Shown: positions 27,042-51,407, numbered from the stretch's first letter. The stretch is 64,000 nt of DNA from Candidatus Nealsonbacteria bacterium (GCA_047456295.1 CP179887.1:623159-687158); one strand, 5' to 3'. Notes: a model not told the origin generated them from the letters alone. Made by a program: numbers and translations.

Positions 27042-27071
27042 ATCGCCAAGACGGCGATTTTTTGGTAGAAT
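27042..27071 (+). promoter_or_regulatory. hairpin + T-run + TGGTAGAAT promoter module
   Basis: ATCGCC-aagac-GGCGAT, T6, then extended -10-like TGGTAGAAT (TAGAAT 27066-27071). The ATG of the next gene is 45 nt downstream. Confidence 0.6.
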
Positions 27072-27116
27072 AGAAATAAAAAGTCATAATAAATATAACT
27101 TCAATTAAAAAACAAT

Positions 27117-28247
27117 ATGTCTAAAACAATAATTGCAATCATTGTTATAATCATTGTCGCGGGATTAGGTTATTGGATTTATCAATCAACTTTAGCACCC
27201 GAAGAACTAACTGAAAAAGAACAGGCGTGTATAAATTCTGGAGGAGAGGTATTAACATCATTGTGTTGTAAAGCAACTGGTGATTTCCCAAACCTGTGTC
27301 TCATTGGTCCCTGTGGTTGTTCCCCAGAAAACAGCCATGAAATAAAAGTTTGTGACTGCGGAGAAAAAAAATGTTTTGACGGTAATACCTGTGTACCAGA
27401 AGTATACAGCTTTAATGACTGTATTAAGGCTGGTTATCCAGTAATGGAAAGTTATCCACGCCAATGCAAAACGCCAGATGGGAGAATATTTACAGAAGGA
27501 GAAGAACATTGTATTGCGCCAACTGGCGAAAGTATGAGTTTGTTTGAAGCCATGCAAATCGCCATAACAAGTGAATGTGGCGACCAGCTAAGAAACTACT
27601 TAGAATTTGCTACGTGTAATGCAGATACAGGGACATGGTGGATAGATCTTGATATTGAAAAAGAAGGATGTAATCCTGCCTGCGTCGTAAATATTGCAAC
27701 AAAAGAAGCATCAATAAACTGGAGATGCACAGGTGTTTTAGAGATAAACAGTTTTGATGATTGTGTGGAAGCTGGTTATGCAATACTTCCTCCAATCCCA
27801 GGTGGCTATACTGAATGTAGAACACCTGATGGTAAGGTTTTCTATTTTGAGGAAATAGATGATGCATCCCTGTGTGCAAGAGATGGGGAAGTATTTTCAA
27901 GAGTATCTGATCAATACCTCGACAGTTGCTGCGAAGGATTAAAAGAATGGATACCTATACCGGATACGCGTTTTTCAATCGCAGATGTATGTTATGAAGT
28001 TGGGTTACCATCGGAATCTAACATAGGACTCTGTATAAAGTGTGGGGACGGGGTTTGTGAAAACCATTTGAACTATGATGAAAATCCATGTAATTGCCCA
28101 GAAGACTGTAAAGGGAAAAACAAGTCCATGTTTCAAAGCATAGAAGAATTTTGCCAGAGCAATGACTGGAAAATGTCTCTTTCCAAAGCATGTGAAGAAC
28201 AAGAACCTATTAAGGGTTCTCCAATATGTAAATTATGCGCTTTTTAA
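27117..28247 (+). CDS. membrane-anchored secreted cysteine-rich protein (paralog of 44651..45829)
   Basis: Signal anchor IIAIIVIIIVAGLGYWIY. 10-Cys module ACINSGG..LCCKATGDFPNLCLIGPCGCSPENSH..KVCDCG..KCF. Two FNDC(I/V)xAGY...C(K/R)TPDG repeats. Confidence 0.75.
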   Translation: MSKTIIAIIVIIIVAGLGYWIYQSTLAPEELTEKEQACINSGGEVLTSLCCKATGDFPNLCLIGPCGCSPENSHEIKVCDCGEKKCFDGNTCVPEVYSFNDCIKAGYPVMESYPRQCKTPDGRIFTEGEEHCIAPTGESMSLFEAMQIAITSECGDQLRNYLEFATCNADTGTWWIDLDIEKEGCNPACVVNIATKEASINWRCTGVLEINSFDDCVEAGYAILPPIPGGYTECRTPDGKVFYFEEIDDASLCARDGEVFSRVSDQYLDSCCEGLKEWIPIPDTRFSIADVCYEVGLPSESNIGLCIKCGDGVCENHLNYDENPCNCPEDCKGKNKSMFQSIEEFCQSNDWKMSLSKACEEQEPIKGSPICKLCAF

Positions 28248-28324
28248 AGAAATAGTGAGTAATGAGGTGTGGAGTACCTGCTCTAGAGATTGAACTATTT
28301 CCGAGACCGAACCGCCTACCCCTC

Positions 28325-28395
28325 TAGGGCGACCGAGAGGGGTTCGAATCCTAGCGCAGGAGCAGGCTAGTGCTCGGTTCGAGCAACCGAGCCGC
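28325..28395 (+). repeat. 71-nt direct repeat: tRNA 3'-end fragment plus module B (right copy)
   Basis: TAGGGCGACCGAGAGGGGTTCGAATCCTAGCGCAGGAGCAGGCTAGTGCTCGGTTCGAGCAACCGAGCCGC. Same order and orientation as 26964-27034. Confidence 0.85.
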
Positions 28396-28475
28396 CCAGC
28401 TTATTGCTGGGCGATTTTTATTACCTTGACTTTTCCTAAAAATAGGGGCAGATTTAAGGCAGATAAACACTATTT

Positions 28476-29700
28476 ATGAACCAAAAAGGCTTTATCCAAA
28501 TTCCGTTATTGGTAGCAATTATAGTTTCTATTGCAGCCGTTGCAGGGATCGGTTACGGAGTAGTTGAATATAATAAAACTTCTAACCTGGTTAAAGAGTC
28601 TCAGCAATTAGCCAAAGAAGAGAAATATAATGAGGCAATTGATAAATTAGAATCTGCTAAAAGTGGTTGGGCTACTAATGTTTTAGGAGTAAAAAAACAA
28701 GAAATTGTTAATGAGATAGAAAATAATAAAAAACTCCTTGAGGATAAATCAGAATATGCCCAAGGAATGGAAGAATTTAATAAAGGAAATTGGGAGAAAG
28801 CCAAAGAATTATTATCAAAAGTTTCCGAAATATCCCCTTATTATCAAGATGCGAAAAATAAGATAGAAGAGGCTCAAAAGAAAATAACAGAAAAACAAAT
28901 TGCCGAAGCAGTGGAGAAAACCACAGAAATGACTCAAGAGGAAATGACTAAACTTCAGCTCGAAAGACAAAAAGCTGAAAAACAATGGGCCGAAGCTGAA
29001 ATAAAACTAAAAGTAGAAGGACTGTTTAGAATAGGAAATACATTGCAAGATTATTATAACACAGTTAGAGAGGGAAGAGGGGTAGGTCAAAATTGGTGGT
29101 TGTATGGATATCAAGGAGAAGTAGACTTCGCATCATATCTAGCTAAACATGGTATAGGAGCAGTATATTGGCCAGAATACGAGTCAACGTATCATTCTCT
29201 TACTGGTAGTTCTTCTTGGTTGGATGCTAAAGAGAAATTAGATAATGTTTTGTTCCTCCCCTACACAGCAGCAGTTAGTTATAATGAGTCAGATTATGAA
29301 AAAATCAGAAAAATTCTCGATTTTTTTTAAATTTTACATCAAATATGAGCCTGATTTTAACGAAATATTAAGAGCGCCAGCGGAAACTCTTGGATTAAAG
29401 TCAGGAGACTGTGATGACTGGTCAATTCTCGCAAGCGCGGCATTCGCAGATGCTGGAATAGATTCAGCCATTATGTTTGTGAAAAGCATAGATGGGACGC
29501 AAGCTCATGCCATGGTATTAGTTCAATCTAAAGAGACCTTACCACTTTGGTCTTATTCAGATTTAACTCAGTATGGTCTTCCTAGTGGAAAATGGTGGAT
29601 TATAGAACCACAATTTACTTTTGGACAACAATCCCAGCATCCAGAATGGTTTACTCAATGGAAGTTTGAGGCAGCAGCATTAGTACCAGGTATAAAATAG
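28476..29700 (+). pseudogene. membrane-anchored coiled-coil / transglutaminase-like cysteine protease gene split by a +1 frameshift in a T8 tract
   Basis: ORF 28476..29330 stops inside T8 (29321-29328). The +1 frame continues ...FFKFYIKYEPDFNEILRAPAETLGLKSGDCDDWS...HAMVLV (Cys/His core of transglutaminase-like proteases). Removing one T gives one 407-aa ORF. Confidence 0.6.
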
Positions 29701-29749
29701 CCAAATTTTATAATTAACCTTTATCATTAACATACAAGGAGAAAATACA

Positions 29750-30738: not shown

Positions 30739-30770
30739 CCCGAGATTGTTTCTCGGGTTTTTGGTATAAT
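30739..30770 (+). promoter_or_regulatory. hairpin + T-run + TGGTATAAT promoter module, leaderless geometry
   Basis: CCCGAG-attgttt-CTCGGG, T5, TGGTATAAT (TATAAT 30765-30770). ATG at 30779 is 8 nt after the -10. Confidence 0.65.
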
Positions 30771-30778
30771 GGAGCAAT

Positions 30779-31378
30779 ATGGAGCAAATAATTTCAAAAG
30801 AAGAGCTTGATGAATTAATGAAGATCGAAGGAGAGGTAAGGGGGCTGACATTAAAAGGTTATACAAATTTTATTTTAAAAGAAGAAGGAAAAGAAGGATT
30901 AAAAAGGTTAGAAGACGCAATAACAGAACTCGGTTATCCAATAAAACACAGAGAAATAAAGGCAATGAGTTTTTATCCTGTAGGACTGGATAATCTTCTT
31001 TTACTGTCTATTAAGAAGCTTTTTAATTATGATAACAAAAAATTTCAGGAGATTGGAGAATTTCAGGCTAAATCCCCTTTAATTATTAGACTTTTTGTGA
31101 AATATTTTATTTCTCTTGAAAAAGCAATTGAAGCAGCTCCTAAGATGTGGAAAGTATATTATTCAAACGGAGACCTCAAAGTAACAGATTTTAATAAAGA
31201 AAAAAAGTATGCAATATTAAGGCTTGAAAATTTCCACAATACTCCAATCCATTGTCAAACTGAGAAAGCCTATTTTTCTAGTGTGGCTCGAATAATAGTT
31301 GGAAGTAAGGTAACCTGTGAAGAAACAAAGTGCACTTTTAGAGGTGATGACTATCACGAATTTTTATTAAGATGGTGA
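30779..31378 (+). CDS. V4R/DUF2378-like small-molecule-binding protein (paralog of 50700..51305)
   Basis: 199 aa. C-terminal CEETKCTFRGDDYHEFLLRW resembles the E-x-x-C-x-x-x-G-D-x-x-C-x-F end of V4R domains. Full-length similarity to 50700..51305. Confidence 0.4.
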   Translation: MEQIISKEELDELMKIEGEVRGLTLKGYTNFILKEEGKEGLKRLEDAITELGYPIKHREIKAMSFYPVGLDNLLLLSIKKLFNYDNKKFQEIGEFQAKSPLIIRLFVKYFISLEKAIEAAPKMWKVYYSNGDLKVTDFNKEKKYAILRLENFHNTPIHCQTEKAYFSSVARIIVGSKVTCEETKCTFRGDDYHEFLLRW

Positions 31379-31382
31379 ACTA

Positions 31383-31460: not shown

Positions 31461-31468
31461 TAAGTTAG

Positions 31469-31500
31469 CCCGAGATTGTTTCTCGGGTTTTTAGTTGACA
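31469..31500 (+). promoter_or_regulatory. hairpin + T-run + TTGACA promoter module
   Basis: CCCGAG-attgttt-CTCGGG, T5, AG, TTGACA (31495-31500), 17 nt, TATATT. The downstream gene has a leader with SD AAGGAG. Confidence 0.6.
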
Positions 31501-31575
31501 GACCTAAATAATAAATGTATATTATGGTCAGTAACTTGTAAACAAAATAATAAAAAAAAGGAGAAGTGAAATAAA

Positions 31576-31905
31576 ATGTCTGTATCTATAAATGATGATG
31601 GAAATTTATCGTTCAAGGTAAAAATTCTTCATAATGGGAACAAGAGAATACTTGTTTTACAATTTTTTGCTGGTGAGGGTTACGGAGAAAAAATAGAAAT
31701 TCTGGAAAAGATAAAAGACTTGTTGTCAGATGGCGTGAATAATTTGACAACCCTTGTAACAACCCTTGCACATGATTTTCCTGGAGATGAAACCATTCTC
31801 AATTTACTTAAGGACTTTTCTAAGAAGGATATCATTCCCGGTTATCATGGTATTAACTGGAGTGCGAGTAAGGGGCATACTCTTAATGTGCAACTTTCTA
31901 TATAA
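31576..31905 (+). CDS. hypothetical protein
   Basis: 109 aa, SD AAGGAGAAG 8 nt upstream. No recognisable motif. Confidence 0.5.
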   Translation: MSVSINDDGNLSFKVKILHNGNKRILVLQFFAGEGYGEKIEILEKIKDLLSDGVNNLTTLVTTLAHDFPGDETILNLLKDFSKKDIIPGYHGINWSASKGHTLNVQLSI

Positions 31906-32075: not shown

Positions 32076-32220
32076 TATTGAGGCCTGAGCCTTTGGCTCG
32101 GGTTTTTGGTTTTAAAGCTATTCATGTTGATTTTTTCTATGATTTATTGTAATGATAATTTAGGTTGTGAAGATAACCAACCGTAATTTAAAAAGTAAAT
32201 AATGACAGATGTGATGTGAT

Positions 32221-33342
32221 ATGAAAGAAAAAAGCGAATATGCAAAAGCTGGAGTAGATTACACTAAGATTGAGCCATTCAAGCAAGCGATGATAAAAGT
32301 AGGAAAACAAACATTAACTTTTCCTAATCGGCGAGAAGTTTTTATTAAAAGCGAGTTATTGCATGCTCATGGTGCTGTTTATGAATATCGTGGTGGTTTA
32401 CCACATATCTGGTGTAAAACACAAGAAGGCCTTGGTAATAAGAATTGGATTGCTGAATGGATGTATCAATTTGCTGATACGGGCAAAACCTATTACGAGA
32501 ACATTGGGATAGATGTTGGCTTAATGGCCGTTAATGATGTGATTGCACAAGGAGCAATGCCAGTGATTTATACTGATGAGGTAGCAGCTGGTGATAGTGA
32601 ATGGTTTGAGGATGACTTTAGGAGCAGAGATTTAGCTAAAGGATACTTTAAACTATGTAAAATGGTTAACATGGCCCTACCAGCAGGTGAATCACCATCA
32701 TTACGTTATCTAATTAAGGCTGAACCGCCAGTTAAAAGTGCTCCGTCCTTAAGTGGTTGTGTTACTGGCATTATTGCTCCCAATAGTCGGCTTATAACTG
32801 GGCAAAAGCTACAGATAGGTGATCATATAATAGGAGCAACCTCTTCAGGTTTGCACGCAAATGGGATTTCACTTGTTATCAAGCGTGCCTTAACGCTTTC
32901 TGAAAAGTTCCTTACCGAACTACCTAATGGTAATATGTTTGGGGAAGAGGCACTTATTCCCACTCGCTCGTATGTGGCCTTAATTGAGGCATTATTAGAA
33001 GCCGAAGTAGATATTCATGCTCTTTTACCAGGCACTGGTGGTGGTATAAGTAAAATAGCTTTTGATAAACGACCCTTCAGCTACCGTATCCATACCTGGG
33101 TAGAGATACCATCTCTATTTCTATTTATGAGAGAGTTGGGGGTGACTCTAGAAGACTGTTTAACAACTTTCAACTGGGGGATTGGTTATTATATCTTTGT
33201 CTCTCCTTCTGAGGTAGAACACACTATTAGTATCGGAAAAAAGGCCGGTTACCAACTTACTGACATTGGCCTCGTAGAAAAAGGCGAACGAAAGGTTGTT
33301 TTTGAACCTGAAGACATCATTTTAGCTCCCCCTGGTAAATAG
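32221..33342 (+). CDS. PurM-like / AIR-synthase-related protein
   Basis: YAKAGVDYTKIEPFK start, IGIDVGLMAVNDVIAQGAMPVIYTDEVAAG and ALPAGESPSL parallel the PurM blocks (IGIDLVAMCVNDL..GAEPLFFLDY; GGETAEMP). Divergent overall. Confidence 0.6.
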   Translation: MKEKSEYAKAGVDYTKIEPFKQAMIKVGKQTLTFPNRREVFIKSELLHAHGAVYEYRGGLPHIWCKTQEGLGNKNWIAEWMYQFADTGKTYYENIGIDVGLMAVNDVIAQGAMPVIYTDEVAAGDSEWFEDDFRSRDLAKGYFKLCKMVNMALPAGESPSLRYLIKAEPPVKSAPSLSGCVTGIIAPNSRLITGQKLQIGDHIIGATSSGLHANGISLVIKRALTLSEKFLTELPNGNMFGEEALIPTRSYVALIEALLEAEVDIHALLPGTGGGISKIAFDKRPFSYRIHTWVEIPSLFLFMRELGVTLEDCLTTFNWGIGYYIFVSPSEVEHTISIGKKAGYQLTDIGLVEKGERKVVFEPEDIILAPPGK

Positions 33343-33433: not shown

Positions 33434-33465
33434 AAACAGGTTCTAACCTCGTTCAGTCCTCAGAG
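33434..33465 (+). repeat. junction core motif type 1 (3' part diverged)
   Basis: AAACAGGTTCTAACCTCGTTCAGTCCTCAGAG, preceded by TTTTTTTATTCCAAAACCACCACC. Confidence 0.85.
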
Positions 33466-33520
33466 AAAAATGAATACTTATAATGTGCTTTAAGCTCTTA
33501 AGATTTTCCCTAATTTTTTT

Positions 33521-33558
33521 CCAATTTATGGTTCTAAACGCGTCCAATAGAGGGAGCC
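33521..33558 (+). repeat. junction core motif type 2
   Basis: CCAATTTATGGTTCTAAACGCGTCCAATAGAGGGAGCC. Sister copies at 40282 and 46509. Confidence 0.8.
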
Positions 33559-33606: not shown

Positions 33607-33636
33607 ATCGCCTTAGAGGCGGTTTTTTGGTAGAAT
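33607..33636 (+). promoter_or_regulatory. hairpin + T-run + TGGTAGAAT promoter module, leaderless geometry
   Basis: ATCGCC-ttaga-GGCGGT, T6, TGGTAGAAT (TAGAAT 33631-33636). ATG at 33645 is 8 nt after the -10. Confidence 0.65.
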
Positions 33637-33644
33637 TGAGAAAT

Positions 33645-34304
33645 ATGGATAATCTTGCTAAAAAGAAAATCGAGGAGATTTTCTCATCAGGTCAAGTCGT
33701 CGCTGAAATGGATAAGACGACACACGATATCTTTCCTGTTTCCTTAGATCTGGATGAGGGAAAAAGTTTACAGAAATTTGTTCAGGATGAAGACCCTCAG
33801 ACAGTGATAGAAATTGGACTTGGCTATGGCTTTGCTGCGTTGAATGTTTTTGCGGCGAAAAATTTATCTAAAGAGAGTGATTTTCGATTCATAACTATTG
33901 ATCCAAACCAAGATAGCCGGTTTTCAAATGTCGGACTCCAACTGTTACGGGAAGTCGACGTTTTTGAGTATGTCGAATTTCATAACGATTCATCGGAGCT
34001 TGTTTTGCCTCGTCTTATCATAGCAAAAGAGAAAGCTGACTTTGCGGTAGTGGATGGCAATCACAGATTCGAGCACGTATTTGTTGACTTATTTTTTCTA
34101 GGGCGTATCTTAAAACCAGGAAGCTTAATCTTTCTAGATGACATGCAATTGCTGGGGATTAAGAAAGCTGTTTCGTTTTTTGTGAAAAATTTTGAATGGA
34201 AAATAGAAAAAGAGGCGCATAGCTCAAAGTATCATAAATGGGCAGTATTACGAACACGCCCCGAAGCTCTTGAACGAAGTTACGATTCTTTTACTGATTT
34301 CTAG
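33645..34304 (+). CDS. class I SAM-dependent methyltransferase (Methyltransf_24 / O-MT family-3-like)
   Basis: Motif I VIEIGLGYGFAAL. DFAVVDGNHRFEHVFVDL and IFLDD blocks. The listed TTG start at 33627 lies inside the promoter, so ATG 33645 is preferred. Confidence 0.75.
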   Translation: MDNLAKKKIEEIFSSGQVVAEMDKTTHDIFPVSLDLDEGKSLQKFVQDEDPQTVIEIGLGYGFAALNVFAAKNLSKESDFRFITIDPNQDSRFSNVGLQLLREVDVFEYVEFHNDSSELVLPRLIIAKEKADFAVVDGNHRFEHVFVDLFFLGRILKPGSLIFLDDMQLLGIKKAVSFFVKNFEWKIEKEAHSSKYHKWAVLRTRPEALERSYDSFTDF

Positions 34305-34407: not shown

Positions 34408-34437
34408 ATCGCCAGCAGGGCGGTTTTTTGTTAAGAT
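34408..34437 (+). promoter_or_regulatory. hairpin + T-run + -10 module, leaderless geometry
   Basis: ATCGCC-agcag-GGCGGT, T6, GTTAAGAT. ATG at 34444 is 6 nt after TAAGAT. Confidence 0.55.
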
Positions 34438-34443
34438 GTAAAT

Positions 34444-34650
34444 ATGAAAAAGAAAAAAGCTATTAGTAAAGAGGTTTTTGATAAGGAGATTGCAATGTGT
34501 AAAACACTATCTAAAGAAAAGAAAGGAAGGTGTAATTGGGGTAAATGCAAAGATTGTGGAGTTATCCCTCTTTTATATAAATTACACAAGGGACAACTAT
34601 TAGAAAAACCAGCAGAGATTAAGAAAGTTAAGGGTAAAATTCTTAAATAA
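34444..34650 (+). CDS. small Lys-rich Cys-containing protein
   Basis: 68 aa, C-x13-CNWGKCKDCG. No known family recognised. Confidence 0.45.
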   Translation: MKKKKAISKEVFDKEIAMCKTLSKEKKGRCNWGKCKDCGVIPLLYKLHKGQLLEKPAEIKKVKGKILK

Positions 34651-34806: not shown

Positions 34807-34838
34807 CCCGAGATTAGTTCTCGGGTTTTTGGTTGACA
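34807..34838 (+). promoter_or_regulatory. hairpin + T-run + TTGACA promoter module
   Basis: CCCGAG-attagtt-CTCGGG, T5, GG, TTGACA (34833-34838). The downstream gene has SD AAAGGAGG. Confidence 0.55.
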
Positions 34839-34918: not shown

Positions 34919-35134
34919 ATGAGTATTCCAAAAGATAAAACTTATCCAGTTAATTCTGTACAATGTAATGAATGTGGAGGAACTGGATGCGAGGTGTGTA
35001 ATGATAGAGGGTGGTTAACTCCAAAAGATCATCCCAATGGAAGAAGATGCATGAGTTCAGTTTGTAATAAACCACTTCATCCAACACACGTCGCAGTTTA
35101 TTGTTCTAATAAATGTGCCCTTGATGACGCATAA
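34919..35134 (+). CDS. small zinc-ribbon protein with DnaJ-type CxxCxGxG motif
   Basis: 71 aa. CNECGGTGCEVCNDRGW plus C-terminal CxxxxC...CxxxC. SD AAAGGAGGAA 5 nt upstream. Confidence 0.55.
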   Translation: MSIPKDKTYPVNSVQCNECGGTGCEVCNDRGWLTPKDHPNGRRCMSSVCNKPLHPTHVAVYCSNKCALDDA

Positions 35135-35244: not shown

Positions 35245-35272
35245 CCCGAGATTGTTTCTCGGGTTTTTGACT
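35245..35272 (+). promoter_or_regulatory. hairpin + T-run + TTGACT module
   Basis: CCCGAG-attgttt-CTCGGG, T5, GACT (TTGACT 35267-35272). Confidence 0.5.
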
Positions 35273-35344
35273 TTTATTAGAAACCTATTAACATAAATGT
35301 AGTTTTTTCAATTACTTAAAAAGAATGCCCTGGAGGTTAAAAAA

Positions 35345-35599
35345 TTGACAAGAAAAAAAGAGTCTCCCCCAAAGTGTCCTAAATGTGGGAGTATAAAAAC
35401 AAATGTAAGATCACGCATAGTCGGTGGACTAATAGTGCAGGAGGTTAAAAAAGATGGAACAGTTGGTCCATCACCCGGAGCAAGAAAAATTACTCATGTG
35501 TCTTGCGCAAAATGCGGAACCGAACTCAAAAACCACCCAGACCACATTCCAGATGGAGTGAAAAAGATATTGGAAGATTTGGAACAATATAAGGAATGA
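35345..35599 (+). CDS. small zinc-ribbon protein
   Basis: 84 aa, TTG start 9 nt after GGAGG. CPKCGS ... CAKCGT four-Cys ribbon. Confidence 0.55.
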   Translation: MTRKKESPPKCPKCGSIKTNVRSRIVGGLIVQEVKKDGTVGPSPGARKITHVSCAKCGTELKNHPDHIPDGVKKILEDLEQYKE

Positions 35600-35744: not shown

Positions 35745-35750
35745 ATTAAA

Positions 35751-35779
35751 TCGCCATTAGGGCGATTTTTTGGTAGGAT
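35751..35779 (+). promoter_or_regulatory. hairpin + T-run + TGGTAGGAT promoter module, leaderless geometry
   Basis: TCGCC-attag-GGCGA, T6, TGGTAGGAT. ATG at 35786 is 6 nt after the -10. Confidence 0.65.
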
Positions 35780-35785
35780 GGAAAT

Positions 35786-36511
35786 ATGAAAGAAGAAACC
35801 AAAACACAAAAACTAATGGGTATAAAGGATTTATTCCGAAATTCTTGGAATATCTACAAAAAGGATTTCAAGAAGTTTTTAGTAATTGCGGTTATTTTTT
35901 TTGGAATTACTGGTTTGACAACGACTTTCATTGGCTCAGAAATTCCTGAAGCAGGGGTTCAGTCTGTACCTAATTCTGCTTTTATGCCTACCGGAGCTGA
36001 ACCATTTTTTACTGTGCCTTGGTATCTGTTTTTTCTCATTATTTTAGCCACAATGTTTATAGGTATCTTGGGAAGTGCCTCTCTTGTTTCTGCGGTTAAA
36101 GAGGTTCCTAAAGATTGGGGAGTTAAAGGAGCACTTAAAGAAGGCTGGTCTAAATATTGGCCCTTCTTTTTGGTTTCTCTATTAACTGGATTAATTATTG
36201 GGCTGGGATTTCTGTTTTTAATAGTTCCTGGTATTATTTTTGCAGTTTGGTTTGGCTTTTCTATTTATACAGTCGTCTGCGAAGACAAAAGGGGGTTCAA
36301 GGCTCTTTCCAGAAGTAAGGAATTGGTTAAGGGCTACTGGTGGCCGACAGCAAAAAGAGTTTTTGTTCTTATGATTATCACCATTCCTTTTTCTCTGGGT
36401 TCGCAATTTATTCCTTATCTTGGCCAGTTTGCCTATATGATTCTCTTTACTCCATTTTCTATAATTTACAACTATCTTATCTACCAAAATCTTAAAGAAA
36501 TAAAAGGTTAA
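35786..36511 (+). CDS. polytopic membrane protein (DUF975-like), unknown function
   Basis: 241 aa with ~6 TM helices. Abuts the next ORF (stop 36509-36511, ATG 36512). Confidence 0.55.
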   Translation: MKEETKTQKLMGIKDLFRNSWNIYKKDFKKFLVIAVIFFGITGLTTTFIGSEIPEAGVQSVPNSAFMPTGAEPFFTVPWYLFFLIILATMFIGILGSASLVSAVKEVPKDWGVKGALKEGWSKYWPFFLVSLLTGLIIGLGFLFLIVPGIIFAVWFGFSIYTVVCEDKRGFKALSRSKELVKGYWWPTAKRVFVLMIITIPFSLGSQFIPYLGQFAYMILFTPFSIIYNYLIYQNLKEIKG

Positions 36512-37885: not shown

Positions 37886-38437
37886 ATGAACTTAAAAGAA
37901 GAGAAAGAATTAGTTAAAAGGGCTAAAAAGAATCTAGAGGTTTTTGGTGAACTTTATGACCAGTATTATTCACAAATTTTTGGCTATGTCCTAAAAAGAA
38001 CAGCTGATTTAGAAATCTCTCAAGATATAACTTCTGAAACATTTTTTAAAGCCTTAAAGAATCTTTGGCAATTTAGATGGAAAAATATTTCTATATCTAG
38101 CTGGTTTTATCGAATTGCTAATAATGAAATAGCTAATTATTTTAGAAAGAACAAATATAAACCAGTTTCTTTGGAAAAAATTCCAGAACCACTTGCGGTT
38201 TCAAATCCTTTTGCTGAAATTATTGAAGCCGAGCAGGAACTAAAAAAACATCAAGATTTTTTAATTCTTCAAGAAAAAATCTCCAAACTTCCCATTAAAT
38301 ACCAAGAAGTAATCATTTTGAGATTTTTTGAAAAAAAGAAAATTGAAGAAGTTGCTGAAATTTTAGGAAAAAAAGAGGGAACAGTAAAATCTTTATTATC
38401 AAGAGGCTTAGAAAAATTAAGAAATTTGGTAGAATGA
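37886..38437 (+). CDS. ECF-type sigma-70 family factor
   Basis: Region 2 (YSQIFGYVLKRTADLEISQDITSETFFKAL) and region 4 HTH (IEEVAEILGKKEGTVKSLLSRGLEKLR). The track starts at TTG 37880, and ATG 37886 is equally possible. Confidence 0.85.
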   Translation: MNLKEEKELVKRAKKNLEVFGELYDQYYSQIFGYVLKRTADLEISQDITSETFFKALKNLWQFRWKNISISSWFYRIANNEIANYFRKNKYKPVSLEKIPEPLAVSNPFAEIIEAEQELKKHQDFLILQEKISKLPIKYQEVIILRFFEKKKIEEVAEILGKKEGTVKSLLSRGLEKLRNLVE

Positions 38438-38441
38438 AGTT

Positions 38442-38792
38442 ATGACAAGAACAAAATTGCTTTATTTGGGAATAGGAATACTAATCTTTTTGTTGGTTTT
38501 AATTTTTACTACCAATTTGAAGTATTCTCTTTGTTCTGACCACTATACGGTTTACTGCTGGCAGGAATCGAAAACTGAACAGCCGAATCCAATTATCATT
38601 ATCAAAGAGCATATTCCTTGTGCTAATAACAGAGATTGCTTTGTTGCTTTGAAATTGGAGAGTTTTTGTAGCCCAGGTCATGCCAACCTATTGAAATGTG
38701 ATTGTGCAAGATATTATTGCGGAGATGACGGATATTGCAAAGGATGCGTTTGCCCCTTGTACTCTCCAGCTTATTGGCTGTTAGTTGATTAA
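38442..38792 (+). CDS. membrane-anchored Cys-rich protein co-transcribed with the ECF sigma factor
   Basis: 116 aa. N-terminal TM LLYLGIGILIFLLVLIF. External part has 10 Cys. 4 nt after the sigma stop. No cytoplasmic anti-sigma domain visible. Confidence 0.5.
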   Translation: MTRTKLLYLGIGILIFLLVLIFTTNLKYSLCSDHYTVYCWQESKTEQPNPIIIIKEHIPCANNRDCFVALKLESFCSPGHANLLKCDCARYYCGDDGYCKGCVCPLYSPAYWLLVD

Positions 38793-40350: not shown

Positions 40351-40373
40351 CTTCGGTTCGAATCATAGCCCCA
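40351..40373 (+). repeat. tRNA 3'-end-like fragment
   Basis: CTTCGGTTCGAATCATAGCCCCA (T-loop GGTTCGAATC plus acceptor-like tail). No 5' half present. Confidence 0.6.
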
Positions 40374-41576: not shown

Positions 41577-41606
41577 ATCGCCTTAGAAGCGGTTTCCTGA
41601 TAGAAT
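41577..41606 (+). promoter_or_regulatory. hairpin + -10 module, leaderless geometry
   Basis: ATCGCC-ttagaa-GCGGT, TTCC, TGATAGAAT. ATG at 41615 is 8 nt after TAGAAT. Confidence 0.6.
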
Positions 41607-41614
41607 GAAAAAAT

Positions 41615-42043
41615 ATGAATAGAAAACAAATCAAAATCTGTAGCGCCTGTTTATTAGGAATAAGGTGTAGGTATGATGGAAAAAGTAAACCGGATGATAA
41701 AATTATTGAACTACTTAAAAAGGAAACCTTGATTCCTGTTTGCCCAGAACAGTTAGGTGGTCTATCAACACCAAGAGAACCAGCAGAACAAAAAGGGAAT
41801 AAGGTTATTACTAAATCGGGGAAAGATGTTACCGAAAGTTTTAAGAAGGGAGCAGAACAGGTTTTGGAATTAGCGGAATTATTTGATATCAAAGAGGCAA
41901 TTTTGAAACAGAAGAGTCCATCCTGTGGATGCGGACAAATTTATGATGGGAGTTTTTCCAGCAGGATTATTAAAGGAGATGGAGTAACCACCTCTCTATT
42001 AAAAACCAACGGTATTAAAGTTATAACCGAGGAAGATTTATAA
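41615..42043 (+). CDS. DUF523 / TudS-like (2-thiouracil desulfurase family) protein
   Basis: CSACLLGIRCRYDG N-terminal motif and internal SPSCG, characteristic of DUF523. Confidence 0.75.
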   Translation: MNRKQIKICSACLLGIRCRYDGKSKPDDKIIELLKKETLIPVCPEQLGGLSTPREPAEQKGNKVITKSGKDVTESFKKGAEQVLELAELFDIKEAILKQKSPSCGCGQIYDGSFSSRIIKGDGVTTSLLKTNGIKVITEEDL

Positions 42044-42098: not shown

Positions 42099-42128
42099 AT
42101 CGCCTTAGGGGCGGTTCTTTGGTAGGAT
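42099..42128 (+). promoter_or_regulatory. hairpin + TGGTAGGAT promoter module
   Basis: ATCGCC-ttagg-GGCGGT, TCTT, TGGTAGGAT (42123-42128). The GTG start at 42156 is 27 nt downstream. Confidence 0.55.
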
Positions 42129-42761: not shown

Positions 42762-42818
42762 CCACCTTATCGGTTAGGTGGTTTTTTGGTTGACCAATTA
42801 TTTTTTAGATGTTAATAT
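42762..42818 (+). promoter_or_regulatory. hairpin + T-run + TTGACC/TAATAT promoter of the csp gene
   Basis: CCACCT-tatcggtt-AGGTGG, T6, GG, TTGACC (42790-42795), 17 nt, TAATAT (42813-42818). Gives a ~100-nt 5' UTR. Confidence 0.6.
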
Positions 42819-42921: not shown

Positions 42922-43119
42922 ATGGAAGGAACAATTAAAAACCTTACAGATAAAGGATTTGGATTTATTAACGTTGATGGTGAAGAGAAAGATTTATTCT
43001 TTCACAGCAACGAACTTAAGGGTGTAACCTACGATGAGTTAAAAGTAGGTGATAGAGTGTCTTTCGAAAAAGCTGATTCTCCAAAGGGTCCTAACGCAAC
43101 AAACGTAACCCGCCTTTAA
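42922..43119 (+). CDS. cspA: cold-shock protein (CspA family)
   Basis: 65 aa, KGFGFI (RNP1) and LFFH (RNP2). Confidence 0.92.
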   Translation: MEGTIKNLTDKGFGFINVDGEEKDLFFHSNELKGVTYDELKVGDRVSFEKADSPKGPNATNVTRL

Positions 43120-44650: not shown

Positions 44651-45829
44651 ATGTCTAAAACAATAATTACAATCATTATTATAATAGTTATAGCGGGAGT
44701 AGGTTATTGGATTTATCAATCAACGATAACACCTGAGGGATTAACTGAAATGGAACAAGCCTGTATAAACTCTGGAGGAAAAATCTCCACATCATTATGT
44801 TGTAAATCAACTGGTGATTTCCCTAACATATGCCTCATTGGTCCTTGTGGTTGCTCTCCAGAAAATAGTCATCAGGTGAAAGTTTGCGACTGTGGACCTG
44901 ACAAATGCTTTAATGGAAGCGAGTGTGTGTCTTCAGACGAGATTTTAACTCTTCTTGAAAACCTTGAGCAAGAAACTGGGATAGATTTTTCAGAGATACA
45001 ACCAGTTGAATTTAAATGGGTTGTTAAAGTAGATCCAAAAGTAGAAGAAGTGGATATAGAAGGAAAAGGATTTGAAGCTAAACGTATATCGAATGGACAG
45101 TACGACAGTGTTGAATCTTTTCTCATAGATAGAGGTTTTGAAAAGAACCTTTACAATATAGCTGATGCCACTTTTGTTGGATTGGTGGGATATAAAAAAG
45201 ACCAGATTGTTTGTACGGTTTCTGGAGGGGCTACTGGGTACAAAGAAGCAGAGGGTCAGTGGATTCCACCAGAACCTGATAAAAAGGATGTAACGGTAAA
45301 ATGTGGTAAAGGAAGCGGGTTGACTGAACCCTTAGTTTCTACAGAAGAGGCAGTAAAGAAGCTTTTGGCTGAAAAATACAATAAGAAAATGGCAGAAGTA
45401 ACCATAAATATTAGCCAAGAGACAGAAAATCATGTTAAGGGTGGAGTTGTATTTCAGCCAGGTGGGCCTGAAAATTCAGGCATGTTTTTAGCAGCTAAAG
45501 AAAATGGTAGTTGGAAATTAGTACATGATGGCCAGGGAGCTATCCCTTGTTTAGATATTGAGCCTTATAATTTTCCAGTATATATGGTTATTGAATGTTT
45601 TGATGAAGAAACTGGAAAAGTAAAAGACAGAGCAGGAGAAGCATGTATCAATTCGGGAGGCGAAGCAACAACTTCTCTATGCTGTAAAGCAACCAGCGAT
45701 TATCCAAACCTTTGTCTTGTTGGTCCCTGCGGTTGTTCACCAGAAAATAGTCATCAAGTAAAAATTTGTGATTGTGGAGAGAACAAATGCTTTGATGGAG
45801 AACAGTGTATTGATGTTTCTTCAAAATAA
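44651..45829 (+). CDS. membrane-anchored cysteine-rich protein carrying the 10-Cys module at both ends (paralog of 27117..28247)
   Basis: N-terminal 95 aa ~85% identical to 27117..28247. The module recurs at the C-terminus (EACINSGGEATTSLCCKATSDYPNLCLVGPCGCSPENSHQVKICDCGENKCFDGEQC). Confidence 0.75.
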   Translation: MSKTIITIIIIIVIAGVGYWIYQSTITPEGLTEMEQACINSGGKISTSLCCKSTGDFPNICLIGPCGCSPENSHQVKVCDCGPDKCFNGSECVSSDEILTLLENLEQETGIDFSEIQPVEFKWVVKVDPKVEEVDIEGKGFEAKRISNGQYDSVESFLIDRGFEKNLYNIADATFVGLVGYKKDQIVCTVSGGATGYKEAEGQWIPPEPDKKDVTVKCGKGSGLTEPLVSTEEAVKKLLAEKYNKKMAEVTINISQETENHVKGGVVFQPGGPENSGMFLAAKENGSWKLVHDGQGAIPCLDIEPYNFPVYMVIECFDEETGKVKDRAGEACINSGGEATTSLCCKATSDYPNLCLVGPCGCSPENSHQVKICDCGENKCFDGEQCIDVSSK

Positions 45830-46357: not shown

Positions 46358-46508
46358 AAAAAGACTAGAATCAAATAATAAAGGAACCTTTCATAAAAGG
46401 TTCCTTTGTTTTATGTTCATCAACCATTTTTTAACATTGTCGTACAGGAAAAATCAGATAAATACTCATAATGGGCTTTAAATCTTTTAACCTTTCCTTA
46501 ATTTTCCT

Positions 46509-46545
46509 CCAATCAAGGGTTCTGAATGCGTCCAATAGGGAAGTC
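46509..46545 (+). repeat. junction core motif type 2
   Basis: CCAATCAAGGGTTCTGAATGCGTCCAATAGGGAAGTC. Confidence 0.8.
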
Positions 46546-46555: not shown

Positions 46556-46585
46556 ATCGCCAATAAGACGATTCTTTGGTAAAGT
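46556..46585 (+). promoter_or_regulatory. hairpin + -10 module, leaderless geometry
   Basis: AATCG-ccaataaga-CGATT, CTT, TGGTAAAGT. ATG 46593 is 7 nt after the -10. Confidence 0.55.
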
Positions 46586-46592
46586 GAAAAGT

Positions 46593-47120
46593 ATGGAAGA
46601 TGAAAAACTTCATTATATAGTAGTTACTGGAATTATTATCAAAAAGGGAAAGTATTTAATTACAAGGAGAAGTTTAGAGGAAGCAGCATTTCCAGGTCTT
46701 TGGACTGTTCCAGGTGGAAAATTGAGAAAAAGTGATTATGTAGAGACTCCTAAAGACACTGGCGACCATTGGTATAATGTTCTGGAAAAACTCTTAGAAA
46801 GAGAGATACAAGAAGAGGTAGGATTAAAAATTAAAAACATCCATTATCTTTTAAGCTTGGCCTATATTCGTTCAGATAATATCCCAACCATGATTATTAG
46901 TCTTTATTGTGATTATGATTCAGGAAAGGTAATGCTTTCAGACGAACTGATAGAACATGCTTGGGTTACTGTAAATGATTTAAACAAATACAAATTTGTT
47001 CCTGGCTTAAGGGAAGAAATTGAGTTGGTTGATAAGGTCCTTAAGAAAGGCAAGCAGGATATGTGGAAGGGTAAATATGATACTGCTTCAAATGGAAGTT
47101 TGAGAGATGGTCATGGGTAA
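46593..47120 (+). CDS. Nudix hydrolase
   Basis: Nudix box GGKL...(insert)...EKLLEREIQEEVGL. The track start GTG 46584 lies in the -10 box, so ATG 46593 is preferred. Confidence 0.8.
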   Translation: MEDEKLHYIVVTGIIIKKGKYLITRRSLEEAAFPGLWTVPGGKLRKSDYVETPKDTGDHWYNVLEKLLEREIQEEVGLKIKNIHYLLSLAYIRSDNIPTMIISLYCDYDSGKVMLSDELIEHAWVTVNDLNKYKFVPGLREEIELVDKVLKKGKQDMWKGKYDTASNGSLRDGHG

Positions 47121-47150
47121 ACAGGTTCTGACATCGTTCTCCACCTGGAC
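47119..47150 (+). repeat. junction core motif type 1 (last copy, 3' part diverged)
   Basis: AAACAGGTTCTGACATCGTTCTCCACCTGGAC. Overlaps the Nudix stop codon (GGGTAAACAGG). Confidence 0.8.
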
Positions 47151-47165
47151 AGGTTGTGGTAAAGA

Positions 47166-47181
47166 GATTTTTTGATAGAAT
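47166..47181 (+). promoter_or_regulatory. extended -10 promoter, leaderless geometry
   Basis: T6 then TGATAGAAT. ATG 47188 is 6 nt after TAGAAT. Confidence 0.55.
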
Positions 47182-47187
47182 AAGGAT

Positions 47188-47676
47188 ATGGTTAAAATTA
47201 AACAATCATTTAAAACAGGTCTGGGTTTTGGATTAATGTCAGGAATTATCACTACCTTGGGATTAATGGTGGGATTACATTCAGGTACCCATTCAAGAAA
47301 AGTACTTATAGGGGGAATTTTAGTTATTGCAGTTGCTGATGCTTTTTCAGACGCCTTAGGGATTCATGTTTCTGAAGAGTCAGACAGAGAGCGCAGTCAA
47401 AGAGAAATCTGGGAATCAACCATCTCTACTTTTTTTTCCAAATTTATCATTGCCTTGACATTCATAATCCCCATTTTATTTTTTGTATTACCTGTTGCAA
47501 TAATTGTTGGCATATTGTGGGGATTGTTTTTAATTGGAGTTTTTAGTTTCTATATTGCAGAACAGAAAAGAGAAAAGCCTTATACGATTGTTTTAGAACA
47601 CCTTACCATTGCTATTTTGGTTATTGTGATTACCCACTATGTCGGTGTTTGGGTGGCAACTTTTAGTTTAGCGTAA
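47188..47676 (+). CDS. VIT1/CCC1-like membrane protein (tentative)
   Basis: GLGFGLMSGIITTLGLMVGL...GGILVIAVADAFSDALGIHVSEES resembles the N-terminal helix pair of VIT-family transporters. 4-5 TMs. Confidence 0.4.
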   Translation: MVKIKQSFKTGLGFGLMSGIITTLGLMVGLHSGTHSRKVLIGGILVIAVADAFSDALGIHVSEESDRERSQREIWESTISTFFSKFIIALTFIIPILFFVLPVAIIVGILWGLFLIGVFSFYIAEQKREKPYTIVLEHLTIAILVIVITHYVGVWVATFSLA

Positions 47677-48661: not shown

Positions 48662-48734
48662 AAACCAGGTTGGGAAAACAGGAAATATCAACAGACAAAG
48701 GTCGAGAATTAATTAAATAAAATATCTACTTATT

Positions 48735-49016: not shown

Positions 49017-49243
49017 CAGATAGTATTTCCTCATTTTTTAATCTATCTTAGAGGAAGTTATCTAAATAGCTGGAGAGCGCGGCTTTAAGTTTTAAATTTC
49101 TTTTTGAAAAGAATTTTAAATCAATTAACAAAGAAGCCCTTTAAAAAGCTTCTTTGTTTTTTGAAAAAGGTTTCATTTTGTATAAAATAAAGCTTATTAA
49201 ATATTTATTGATAAATAATTAAGATATAATAAAATTAGGAATT

Positions 49244-50608
49244 ATGAGTTTTCTTAAAGAACCTAAAACTAATTGGAAATACATTTTGATTATAGTGGTT
49301 TTAGCCACCATCCTGGGAGGAGGAATTTTGGGTTATACAGGAGAGCTTATGGAAGAGTTGAGTTTTAATAATAATTATCCAGAGATAAAAAGACCTGAAA
49401 GGAAATCTCCATATCTTAAATTCTTCGAAGAAATAAGAGAAGAATTAATTTTTAAAAAAGCTGATTTTTTGGAAGCTAATCTCTCTGAAATGAAGATAAG
49501 GGTTTTCCAGCAAGGCCTCCCCAAAGAAGAAACCCTTATTTTGACAAAAGGAGATCCCCAGGGGTGGGGAGGGTCAGCCGCGGGTCTTTATCAGGTGATT
49601 TCAGGAAATAAATTAAGCTTTTCAGCTGTATCAGATGTATACATGCCCTATGCCCTTAAATACTACGGGAAGTATTATATTCACGGAGAACCTTATTATT
49701 CCTGGGGAGAGAAACTTATTTCTTCGGTATCAGGAGGTTGTTTGCGTCAGAGTGACCAGGATGCAAAGACTATTTATGAATTAGCCGAGATAGGTATGCC
49801 CCTTCTTGTTATAGATAAAACAAAAGATACCTATAAGTATTTTAATAAGGAATTAACCCGGTTTCCAAAGATTTCTGTCCAGAGTTATTTGGTGGCTGAC
49901 CTGGATTCAGGATATGTTTTTAGCCAGAAGGATTATCAGAAACAGTTGCCCATAGCCTCTTTAACAAAATTAATGACAGCCGTGGTTGTAGCTGAAAATG
50001 TTGATTTAAGAAAATCTATCCTGGTAAGGGAAGAAATGCTTAATGGTTACGGTTCCACCCAAGGTTTGGAATCAGATGAAAGATTCAGCGTGGTAGAATT
50101 GTTTTACCCTCTTTTAATAGAATCTTCTAATGATGCTGCTGAAGTGCTTAGTTATTTCTTGGGTAGAGAAAGAACCATTAATTTAATGAATGAAAAGGCT
50201 GAAGCTATTTTAATGGAACAGACAGAATTCTTTGATTCTTCTGGTTTTAATCCTAAAAATGTCAGTACTGCCAGAGACCTGTTTTATCTAGCAAGATACA
50301 TATTCAACAATCGTTTTCCTATTTTAAAGATTAGCAAAGGGAAAGAGGTTCAAAGCTTTGGAGAGATTGATTTTGATATTAAGGATTTGTGGAATAAAAA
50401 CATCTTTATTGCTGACACCACTTTTGTCGGGGGAAAGACAGGATTTACTCGGGCATCTAAAAATACCGGCCTCTTTATATTTCGTTTAACCAGTGAGGAT
50501 AATGAAGATCGTAATCTGGTAATTATTCTTCTTGGAGCCGGAAACATTAAAAGAGACACTCAAAAGATTTATATATGGCTTACAGAAAATTACTTTAAAA
50601 AGGGATAG
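49244..50608 (+). CDS. fusion of L,D-transpeptidase (YkuD) and D-Ala-D-Ala carboxypeptidase (peptidase S11 / PBP5-like)
   Basis: YkuD: YYIHGEPYY...SSVSGGCLRQSDQDAKTIYE (H...SxGC-x-R). S11: ASLTKLMTA (SxxK), ESSNDAA (SxN), GGKTGFT (KTG). N-terminal TM anchor. Confidence 0.85.
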   Translation: MSFLKEPKTNWKYILIIVVLATILGGGILGYTGELMEELSFNNNYPEIKRPERKSPYLKFFEEIREELIFKKADFLEANLSEMKIRVFQQGLPKEETLILTKGDPQGWGGSAAGLYQVISGNKLSFSAVSDVYMPYALKYYGKYYIHGEPYYSWGEKLISSVSGGCLRQSDQDAKTIYELAEIGMPLLVIDKTKDTYKYFNKELTRFPKISVQSYLVADLDSGYVFSQKDYQKQLPIASLTKLMTAVVVAENVDLRKSILVREEMLNGYGSTQGLESDERFSVVELFYPLLIESSNDAAEVLSYFLGRERTINLMNEKAEAILMEQTEFFDSSGFNPKNVSTARDLFYLARYIFNNRFPILKISKGKEVQSFGEIDFDIKDLWNKNIFIADTTFVGGKTGFTRASKNTGLFIFRLTSEDNEDRNLVIILLGAGNIKRDTQKIYIWLTENYFKKG

Positions 50609-50699
50609 ATTAATCAGTTCCACTTACAGGAATTTATCTCAACTTTTTATTTTTTTGATATTTTGCTAAAATAATAATATATAATCATTAAAAGACATC

Positions 50700-51305
50700 A
50701 TGGAAGAAATTCTTACCAAAGAAACAGCTAAAAAATTGATGGATATTAAAGGAGAAATAAGAGGGATTGTTTTTAAAACAGATGTCACTTTTATTCTCAA
50801 AGAAAAAGGAGAAGAAGGGCTTAAAAAATTAGAAGCTGAGATGGAAAGATTGGGTTATCCATTTAAATATAATACAATAAAAACATCGGAATTTTATCCC
50901 ATAGGATTGAGAATAATTTCTCTTTTGTTGATAAAGCAAATCTTTGGTTTTTCTGAGGAAAAAATTGAAGAGATGGGATTTTTGGCTATCAAGTTTTCTC
51001 CATTACTCAGAATTATTACGAAACTCTTTTTGAATTTTGAAAAGATATTCTTTTCAAGGGGGCCAGAGCTTTTTAAAAAAATTGTGAGGGTTGGTGAAAT
51101 TATTCCTGTAATAATTGATACTAAAAAGAAAGAGGCAATAATTAGATTTAAAGATTTAGATCTTCATCCTATTTATTGCAGGTACTTGAAAGGCGGTCTT
51201 TTAGGTTTTTTCAAAGTAGCTACTGGTGTCCAGATAATAACCTGTCAAGAAACAAAGTGTACCTTTCAGGGGGATGAATATCACGAATTTTTACTAAAGT
51301 GGTAA
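50700..51305 (+). CDS. V4R/DUF2378-like protein (paralog of 30779..31378)
   Basis: 201 aa. Co-linear similarity along the whole length. Same C-terminus CQETKCTFQGDEYHEFLLKW. Confidence 0.4.
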   Translation: MEEILTKETAKKLMDIKGEIRGIVFKTDVTFILKEKGEEGLKKLEAEMERLGYPFKYNTIKTSEFYPIGLRIISLLLIKQIFGFSEEKIEEMGFLAIKFSPLLRIITKLFLNFEKIFFSRGPELFKKIVRVGEIIPVIIDTKKKEAIIRFKDLDLHPIYCRYLKGGLLGFFKVATGVQIITCQETKCTFQGDEYHEFLLKW

Positions 51306-51338
51306 AATTTTTATCTTTAATAGTCAGAACCGGAAAAA

Positions 51339-51401
51339 ATCGCCGCTCCGTCGCTTAAGCTATGAAGCGTCGGCGACAAGAAGGCGGTTTTTTAGTAGAA
51401 T
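51339..51401 (+). promoter_or_regulatory. long hairpin + T-run + TAGTAGAAT promoter module, leaderless geometry
   Basis: TCGCCG...CGCTT-aagctatg-AAGCG...CGGCGA, then GGCGG-T6-AGTAGAAT. ATG 51408 is 6 nt after TAGAAT. Confidence 0.55.
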
Positions 51402-51407
51402 AAGAAT

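Follow-up and report, generated by a model that had tools for sequence, protein, structure and literature searches.

A hairpin module fused to an extended -10 box in a gene array of Candidatus Nealsonbacteria, and its predicted role in leaderless expression

We have analyzed a 64,000-nucleotide stretch of the genome of Candidatus Nealsonbacteria bacterium (GCA_047456295.1, CP179887.1:623159-687158; the whole stretch is called the window below), in which 17 gene units between 27.0 and 51.4 kb are headed by a GC-rich hairpin and a run of T residues; one further unit has a -10 box only. Hairpin and T-run are fused either to an extended -10 box (TGnTAnnAT) or to a TTGACA -35 box, and it is this compact element, the hairpin module, that concerns us here. 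Each unit ends in a different, 33-nt non-palindromic element, module A, which follows the stop codon or the gene's own terminator. The window is AT-rich (GC ~35%), and all long open reading frames (ORFs) from 20.5 kb to 53.7 kb lie on the + strand; the region was read together with all of its intergenic stretches. The following modules were found, with positions counted from the first base of the window (SD, Shine-Dalgarno sequence):

27042-27071, + strand: hairpin ATCGCC-aagac-GGCGAT (-14.1 kcal/mol), T5, TGGTAGAAT; TCGCCA lies 17 nt from TAGAAT, TG present; gene ATG at 27117 (+ strand) after a 45-nt leader without SD
28393-28432, + strand: hairpin CGCCCAGC-ttatt-GCTGGGCG, T-run, TTGACT; gene ATG at 28476
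30739-30781, + strand: CCCGAG hairpin (-14.6 kcal/mol), T5, TGGTATAAT, 8 nt, ATG at 30779
31469-31523, + strand: CCCGAG hairpin, T5, TTGACA-17-TATATT (11/12 promoter match); gene ATG at 31576 (+ strand) after a long leader with AAGGAG
32080-32112, + strand: CCTGAGC/GCTCGGG hairpin (-17.5 kcal/mol), T5, no clear box; gene ATG at 32221
33607-33647, + strand: ATCGCC hairpin (-13.1 kcal/mol), T5, TGGTAGAAT, 8 nt, ATG at 33645
34408-34446, + strand: ATCGCC hairpin (-13.4 kcal/mol), T5, TGTTAAGAT, 6 nt, ATG at 34444
34807-34838, + strand: CCCGAG hairpin, T5, GGTTGACA; leader with AAGGAGG, ATG at 34919
35245-35294, + strand: CCCGAG hairpin, T5, TTGACT-16-TAACAT; GGAGG before a TTG start at 35345
35750-35788, + strand: ATCGCC hairpin (-13.7 kcal/mol), T5, TGGTAGGAT, 6 nt, ATG at 35786
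38427-38444, + strand: box without hairpin, TGGTAGAAT, 6 nt, ATG at 38442; within the 3' end of a sigma-factor gene
41577-41617, + strand: weak ATCGCC/GCGGT hairpin (-5.8 kcal/mol), TTTCC, TGATAGAAT, 8 nt, ATG at 41615
42099-42128, + strand: ATCGCC hairpin (-10.3 kcal/mol), TCTTT, TGGTAGGAT; Ham1 gene with GTG start at 42156 (+ strand) after a 27-nt leader without SD
42762-42818, + strand: CCACCT hairpin, T6, TTGACC-17-TAATAT, TG present; csp gene ATG at 42922
46556-46595, + strand: degenerate ATCGCC/GACGAT hairpin (-4.5 kcal/mol), TCTTT, TGGTAAAGT (weak box), 7 nt, ATG at 46593
47145-47190, + strand: weak hairpin (-4.9 kcal/mol), T6, TGATAGAAT, 6 nt, ATG at 47188
51339-51410, + strand: long hairpin (-24.9 kcal/mol), T5, AG, TAGAAT (TAGTAGAAT, no TG), 6 nt, ATG at 51408

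A preliminary description of this region had placed eight ATG codons 6-8 nt past a -10 hexamer (30779, 33645, 34444, 35786, 41615, 46593, 47188 and 51408), and all eight are indeed found at these positions; the ATG at 38442 is a ninth that had escaped it. The TG dinucleotide of the extended -10 box stands one base 5' of the hexamer in seven of the eight units and at 38427, with AG in its place at 51394. Within the window we count 4 instances of TGNTANNAT-N6-ATG where 0.83 are expected, and none of 100 shuffles reaches 4; TGNTANNAT-N8-ATG is present 3 times against 0.57, and 2 of 100 shuffles reach 3. Taken together, these are 7 sites against 1.4 expected, 7/7 of them on the + strand and 7/7 opening real ORFs. 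The description had also assigned normal leaders with AAGGAG-type SD sequences to units of the TTGACA type; the genes at 31576, 34919 and 35345 do have long leaders with an SD, and the -10 boxes of TTGACA-type units sit 16-17 nt from the -35. Its broader proposal, that leaderless expression is built into the units, suits the eight listed units, whereas the leaders of 45 and 27 nt, both without SD, after the extended -10 modules at 27042 and 42099 indicate that a leaderless gene is not always the outcome.

The spacing between box and start codon recurs well outside the window. A scan of one genome per species for module A gave 118 genome loci, mostly from metagenome-assembled genomes (MAGs) of Patescibacteria (also known as CPR, the candidate phyla radiation), which were thus picked for an element unrelated to promoters. 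In these loci together with the window, we counted the distance from TGnTAnnAT to the first ATG opening an ORF of at least 60 codons, and this ATG lies at 6, 7 and 8 nt in 49, 18 and 26 cases (93 of 215), with about three cases at each other distance; the peak is lost with a TG-less hexamer or a scrambled motif. Since 53 of 91 such sites have no hairpin or module A nearby, the arrangement appears to be a general habit of these genomes. The result was replicated in a metagenome set of 121 sites, selected on GGCGGTTTTTTGnTAnnAT only (scan motif GGCGGTTTTTTGNTANNAT, the bases 3' of the box being left unconstrained): the ATG lies at 6, 7 and 8 nt in 23, 9 and 12 sites, or 44 of the 96 that have an ORF within 60 nt. 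At position -1, T is found in 53/90, 30/35 and 35/44 sites (59-86%), and G in 0, 0 and 3 (3/169); T at -1 followed by A at +1 corresponds to the pyrimidine/purine preference of transcription start sites. In the literature, a Pribnow box at a distance of 6-8 nt from the start codon is described as the hallmark of leaderless genes in bacteria (PMC6028130).

Within the metagenome copies the preferred hexamer is TAGAAT or TAGGAT, not TATAAT; these two account for 14% of hexamers in the module and for ~2-4% elsewhere, while the position between G and TA accepts any base (G 66, A 31, T 16 and C 8 among the 121 sites). The view that the hairpin occupies the -35 position was borne out, as the 5' arm TCGCCA lies exactly 17 nt from the hexamer in the commonest version of the module.

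It had further been argued that the short spacing leaves no room for an SD, and that transcripts should therefore be leaderless. The spacing is as claimed, but the argument is weak when taken alone, for an SD is present in only ~6 of 55 window genes, all six within the array, and ~49 of 55 have none at all, core genes such as proS having AT-rich leaders without SD. As the lack of an SD proves little in an SD-poor genome, the case for leaderless mRNAs rests on the TG-dependent spacing. The same scarcity would suit a different situation, in which long read-through transcripts are translated by internal, SD-independent initiation, and the -10-like box is either inactive as a promoter or a translation signal; the single orientation of all array genes and the purine-rich spacers, with GGAG at 30771 and AAGGA at 47182, can be counted in its favor. 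We nevertheless consider read-through unlikely: the spacing peak requires TG, which is contacted by sigma and not by the ribosome, the pyrimidine at -1 and the A at +1 suit the choice of a transcription start site, and in most cases a strong terminator hairpin lies immediately 5', so that little read-through is expected.

Conserved N-termini and Pfam boundaries support the view that the proposed AUGs are the true start codons. In 6 of the 8 cases no other start codon is possible between the proposed ATG and the in-frame stop codon that precedes it. The N-terminus MEQI.SKE of the 30779 product is kept in four homologues, and the cassette homologous to 35786 in locus L019 keeps TAGGAT-6-ATG despite a different spacer sequence. 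Pfam domains start within 3-14 residues of the N-terminus in the products of 41615 (from residue 9), 46593 (a NUDIX domain from residue 11) and 47188 (a VIT1 domain from residue 14), and a methyltransferase match begins at residue 29 in that of 33645. The support from N-termini and domain boundaries covers 30779, 35786, 41615, 46593, 47188 and 33645.

The hairpins that precede the boxes in the window belong to four families:

27042, 33607, 34408, 35750, 41577, 42099 and 46556, with a long version at 51339-51388, + strand: ATCGCC-N5-GGCGRT
30739, 31469, 34807 and 35245, + strand: CCCGAG-N7-CTCGGG
42762, + strand: CCACCT-N8-AGGTGG
~32085, + strand: CCTGAGC...GCTCGGG, with a loop of 5 nt, or of 3 nt with an 8-bp stem

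These are the four families of the preliminary description, all where it had put them, apart from the loop of the CCTGAGC hairpin, which is 5 or 3 nt long rather than 4. The long version at 51339-51388 has ATCGCC/GGCGGT arms and a 38-nt loop insert with a stem of its own. Folded as RNA, the hairpins of the window units reach -10 to -25 kcal/mol, with three weak exceptions. The GC-rich stem-loop passes immediately into a U-run, as in an intrinsic terminator, though weakly so at 41577, 46556 and 47145, and the array holds 33 terminator-like sites against 13.7 +/- 3.0. A GC-rich hairpin lies directly 5' of 75 of the 161 extended -10 boxes with a T-rich heptamer, against 6.8 in shuffled sequence, and these come from 40 loci. 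The consensus of the module, aaAATCGCC-N5-GGCGGTTTTTTGGTAGAAT, is near-invariant.

The arms of this hairpin can be exchanged and yet stay complementary (ATCGCC/GGCGAT, CCGCCTC/GAGGCGG, CCACCTC/GAGGTGG and GGACCCTG/CGGGGTCC), and the loop varies from 3 to 8 nt; complementarity was scored per sequence, as column-wise covariation is unsuitable on our alignment (A1), in which two hairpin sub-families are out of register. Because arms are replaced by other complementary pairs and the loop varies, we suggest that it is the structure that is kept, and not a palindrome bound by a protein. The alternative is that ATCGCC-N5-GGCGAT is an operator for a dimeric regulator sitting over the -35 region, with no RNA hairpin involved; the perfect 6-N5-6 inverted repeat at about -36 to -20 has the right appearance for this, and the arm sequences are unusually conserved over dozens of genomes. 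We find an operator quite improbable, however, since the loop is 3-8 nt long and grows up to 38 nt at 51339, and since the arms give way to unrelated complementary sequences. The common GGCGGT arm, moreover, needs a G-U pair to match ATCGCC, and such a pair is available to the sense RNA but not to a palindrome in DNA; sense RNA also folds better than antisense (-8.7 vs -6.8 kcal/mol, p = 6e-24). Finally, the same element closes tRNA genes: it is found directly 3' of them in loci L039, L096, L053, L056, L101 and L198.

The preliminary description had treated the element as the terminator of the upstream unit and the promoter of the next in one. Comparisons across breakpoints show to which gene it belongs: the module stays with the homologous downstream gene while the upstream sequence differs (L025 vs L039; the window vs L019), and among homologous upstream genes the similarity extends over module A to the end of its GGAGC tail and is lost beyond it (L002 vs L017). 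As it travels with the downstream gene, the module is best seen as the head of the downstream unit. The sequence tests favor both functions, but since many upstream genes have their own terminator before module A and are thus already self-terminated, the hairpin is better termed an insulator. Module A, the boundary element of the array, is absent near 112 of the 121 metagenome copies of the hairpin module, which indicates that the latter is a general device of these genomes and not specific to arrays.

Taken together, we think it probable that the module is a portable insulator-terminator joined to an extended -10 promoter, which would yield leaderless mRNAs. We regard the architecture, the non-random spacing with its dependence on TG, the presence of the module at hundreds of loci and the correctness of the start codons as established at the level of the sequence. 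From these features we infer termination, promoter activity and the exact start site, in the following way. The A-tract, the GC-rich stem-loop and the U-run would form an intrinsic terminator that blocks read-through from the upstream gene or tRNA. The last T of the T-run, the next G and TAnnAT would then constitute an extended -10 promoter (TGnTAnnAT), a type largely or wholly independent of a -35, with the 5' hairpin arm TCGCCA placed at the -35 position, 17 nt upstream, in the commonest version. RNA polymerase would start at the A of the ATG, or 1-2 nt before it, and so produce a leaderless mRNA, while a sister module with the same kind of hairpin, a TTGACA and a -10 of its own would give a long leader bearing an SD.

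Several points weigh against this proposal. The hairpins are weak in 3 of the 8 units (41577, 46556 and 47145), and the -10 boxes at 46580 (TAAAGT) and 51396 (without TG) are poor. In an SD-poor genome, ribosomes must in any case begin on SD-less leaders, and leaderless starts are not forced. The loci were chosen around related motifs and hence are no random sample of genomes, and the bias towards folding of the sense strand may come in part from U-runs engaged in G-U pairs. The near-invariance of GGCGGTTTTTT also exceeds what a terminator needs; the overlapping demands of -35, stem, U-run and TG on the same bases suggest, by inference only, an explanation for such strong conservation.

The units that carry the module are arranged in an array, whose other elements are as follows:

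26891-47151, + strand: module A in 15 copies (aAACAGGTTCTAACnTCGTCC-N6-8-GGAGC, relaxed matching)
26895, 32048, 33439, 33530, 34664, 35208, 35685 and 40291, + strand: GG starts of the first eight copies of module A
41541, 42062, 42726, 43394, 45861, 46518 and 47124, + strand: GG starts of the remaining seven
20051-20385, + strand: tRNA-Asn(GTT), with exons 20051-20084 and 20347-20385, whose spliced sequence is folded by ARAGORN
26926, 27006, 28367, 40322 and 43425: module B, ~28 nt each, also found in L013, L077, L079 and L114

Near-exact copies of module A number 12 in the window against 0.12 expected, all on the + strand. Its 18-mer is present in more than 118 genome loci, mostly of Patescibacteria, and also in bins labelled Omnitrophota, Zixibacteria, Elusimicrobiota, Desulfobacterota, Aenigmatarchaeota and others, some of which may be binning errors. 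A 262-nt group I intron (20085-20346, from Rfam) interrupts the anticodon loop of the tRNA-Asn(GTT) gene, which ARAGORN missed on the raw sequence; at gathering thresholds, Rfam returned only tRNA-Ser and the group I intron in the window. A LAGLIDADG-like ORF (19352-20017) lies just 5' of the split gene. The 3' end of this tRNA, CCTACCGCCGGAGC, matches the CCGGAGC tail of module A, as well as two decayed tRNA-Asn 3' halves at 26980-27002 and 28341-28363. Decayed 3' halves (GGTTCGAATCCTACCGCCGGAGC and variants) are seen at these two places and at 40355-40364, each then followed by module B, a T-arm-like hairpin (GTGCTCGGTTCGAGCGACCGAGCCGC) whose place is 5' of the promoter hairpin and 3' of module A or of a tRNA 3' end; module B likewise follows real tRNA-Asn genes in L079 and L055.

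In other genomes the arrays sit 3' of real tRNA genes, with Gln, Asn, Trp, Ser, His and Ala represented. Module A agrees over its last 5-8 nt with the 3' end of the nearest upstream tRNA, and the remaining repeat is not tRNA sequence; the longest common substring between the tail of module A and the tRNA averages 4.98 against 3.79 +/- 0.15, a value that 0 of 2000 permutations reach. Alignment end-points bracket the cassette junction between the GGAGC tail and the start of the hairpin. This looks like a site-specific accretion of gene units at the 3' end of a tRNA gene. We tentatively put forward, as a possibility that we hold with less confidence than the proposed function of the hairpin module, that the region from 20 to 47 kb is a tRNA-anchored, integron-like array of self-expressing cassettes, each with its own insulator-terminator, extended -10 and often leaderless ORF, and each ending in a 33-nt pseudo-tRNA-3'-end site (AACAGGTTCTAACnTCGTCC...GGAGC). 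A putative recombinase acting in trans would insert cassettes at tRNA 3' ends, of Asn here and of Gln, Trp, Ser, His and Ala elsewhere; such arrays would be common to many Patescibacteria, would extend to bins of other phyla, and would be of a kind not described before.

The likeness to integrons raises the question whether the hairpin, T-run and GnTAGAA might be the right half (L', spacer and R') of an attC site, with the ATG spacing reflecting a cassette boundary. GTTAGAA would be complementary to the TTCTAAC of module A, and module A resembles the left half of the aadA attC; TAGAAT/TAGGAT are enriched in the module, complete palindromes (GGTTCTAAC...GGTTAGAAC) exist in L039 and L085, and in two units neat L''/L' pairings can be made by eye. 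Against this, complementarity to module A is no higher downstream (mean score 13.5) than in the upstream control (13.8), whole elements are not significant as one imperfect hairpin fold, the base between G and TA is free where an attC has an invariant GTT, and exact GTTAGAA is found in just 6 of 142. The R''(RYYYAAC)/R'(GTTRRRY) and L''/L' palindrome is present in 3 of ~200 copies (L039, L085 and L115), the full palindrome and the module stand separately, side by side, in L085, homologous cassettes start upstream of the hairpin, and 112 of 121 modules have no module A nearby. No integrase was found either, in the window ORFs scanned or by a strict motif scan of the 118 loci. An attC site is hardly credible; we reject the identity on the unenriched complementarity, the non-significant folds, the unconserved GTT and the occurrence of the module mostly without module A.

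The recombinase searches covered the following ground. In the window, Pfam detected no integrase in the ORFs covered, namely 8217-9113 and, of the 20 long ORFs at 20.5-37.8 and 38.4-54.3 kb, 17. A scan of the 118 loci for tyrosine-recombinase motifs gave none, this being a strict scan that does not prove absence, and clustering of ORFs from the 118 loci gave no recombinase; the recurrent ORFs, judged by eye and with no domain scan, appear to be housekeeping genes (prfB, ftsE, htpX, htrA-like). The only match of module A in a viral collection is L119 14300-14730 (IMGVR_UViG_3300009529_003397), near the end of a phage-like contig with terminase, portal and capsid genes, where it is followed by ~450 nt of GC-rich, possibly structured sequence; no recombinase was seen on this only viral contig carrying module A. 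A search for clean pairs with and without a cassette gave only messy cases (L228 vs the window; L049 vs L173).

Other observations concern the array and its surroundings. Module A also occurs as pairs 60-100 nt apart (33439-33557 and 46430-46545; also in L020, L031, L046, L083 and L096), in which the second copy is a variant, ..CCAATC..GGTTCTRAAnGCGTCC.., and which enclose a short conserved AT-rich stretch without a gene, like an empty unit. At 22425-26807, a branched-chain amino-acid ABC transporter operon stands out by a clearly higher GC content (0.42 vs 0.35); with its place between the tRNA-Asn/proS region and the first, degenerate copy of module A (26895), it may have been acquired as a multi-gene unit. 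Two pairs of units are paralogous: 27117-28247 and 44651-45829 encode Cys-rich secreted proteins, and 30779-31378 and 50700-51305 encode V4R-like proteins of 40% identity, the second copy having a different upstream region. The ORFs 28476-29330 and 29245-29700 (transglutaminase-like) overlap at a T8 run and probably result from a frameshift within one gene or from a sequencing slip. A TnpB/Cas12f-like ORF at 52453-53694 (OrfB_IS605, TNB domain), with a hairpin (CCACCGAAttcaTTCGGTGG) upstream, lies just beyond the last module. From 55178 to 64000, a frame of more than 2941 codons remains open and runs off the end of the window; it is probably a giant surface protein, begins with three Lys/Arg-rich repeats of ~530 nt each, and has a GC content of 0.47 from 58 kb.

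Each part of the proposed mechanism, extended -10 promoter, leaderless start and intrinsic terminator, is of a known kind; what is new is the lineage and the conserved, portable 35-nt form. In the leaderless genes of Actinobacteria and Deinococcus-Thermus ('group C' of GeneMarkS-2), the -10 likewise precedes the start by 6-8 nt, too close for a ribosome-binding site to fit between them, and transcription and translation begin at the same A (PMC6028130). The present case differs in that it comes from Patescibacteria, for which we found no account of the pattern in the open-access literature, in that the box is nearly always an extended TGn, and in that box and terminator hairpin are joined in a conserved 35-nt unit recurring across genomes. 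More broadly, open-access literature yielded no relevant account of leaderless genes in CPR, of integrons in CPR or of tRNA-linked cassette arrays. In extended -10 (TGn) promoters of the sigma-70 type, TG stands one base 5' of TAnnAT and the -35 is weak or absent; TG is placed in the same way here, while a T-run and a GC-rich stem fill the spacer and the -35 region. Intrinsic terminators, including bidirectional ones with A-tract, hairpin and T-tract, share with the module the stem of 5-9 bp, the loop of 3-8 nt and the 5-7 U residues, but here the U-run passes straight into the next promoter, and the sequence of the stem is far more conserved.

As for the array, it is similar to integron cassettes in that its units mostly hold a single gene, share one orientation and have a conserved repeat behind them, a repeat that is common to several phyla and some archaeal bins. 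In our case, by contrast, the repeat is no attC palindrome, the scans described above found no IntI, the arrays are associated with tRNA genes, and the units carry their own promoter and terminator where integrons rely on a single Pc promoter. Integrative elements that target tRNA genes, or tandem islands such as the tycheposons of Prochlorococcus, have cargo 3' of a tRNA and repeats that copy the tRNA 3' end. The array resembles them in having cargo 3' of a tRNA gene, and its repeats may be related in that their tails match the tRNA 3' end. The match is limited to the final 5-8 nt, however, with the other bases of the 33-nt repeat fixed and common to arrays behind different tRNAs, and the units are single-gene, with no integrase seen in scans.

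The tRNA-anchored array around the module is the more surprising lead. If it is mobile, the module would explain how a single gene can be expressed at any landing place, unlike the Pc of integrons; built-in leaderless expression, if true, would let a cassette work in any host and at any position of an array, which classical integrons lack. Patescibacteria make up a large share of bacterial diversity, yet the initiation and termination of transcription and the initiation of translation are, to our knowledge, almost uncharted in this group. A 35-nt consensus from which terminator, promoter and start codon could be predicted together would sharpen the calling of gene starts in thousands of MAGs, and would supply a ready expression part for the new genetic systems of Saccharibacteria. 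Along with this, the module would show that leaderless translation is common in a lineage beyond Actinobacteria and Deinococcus.

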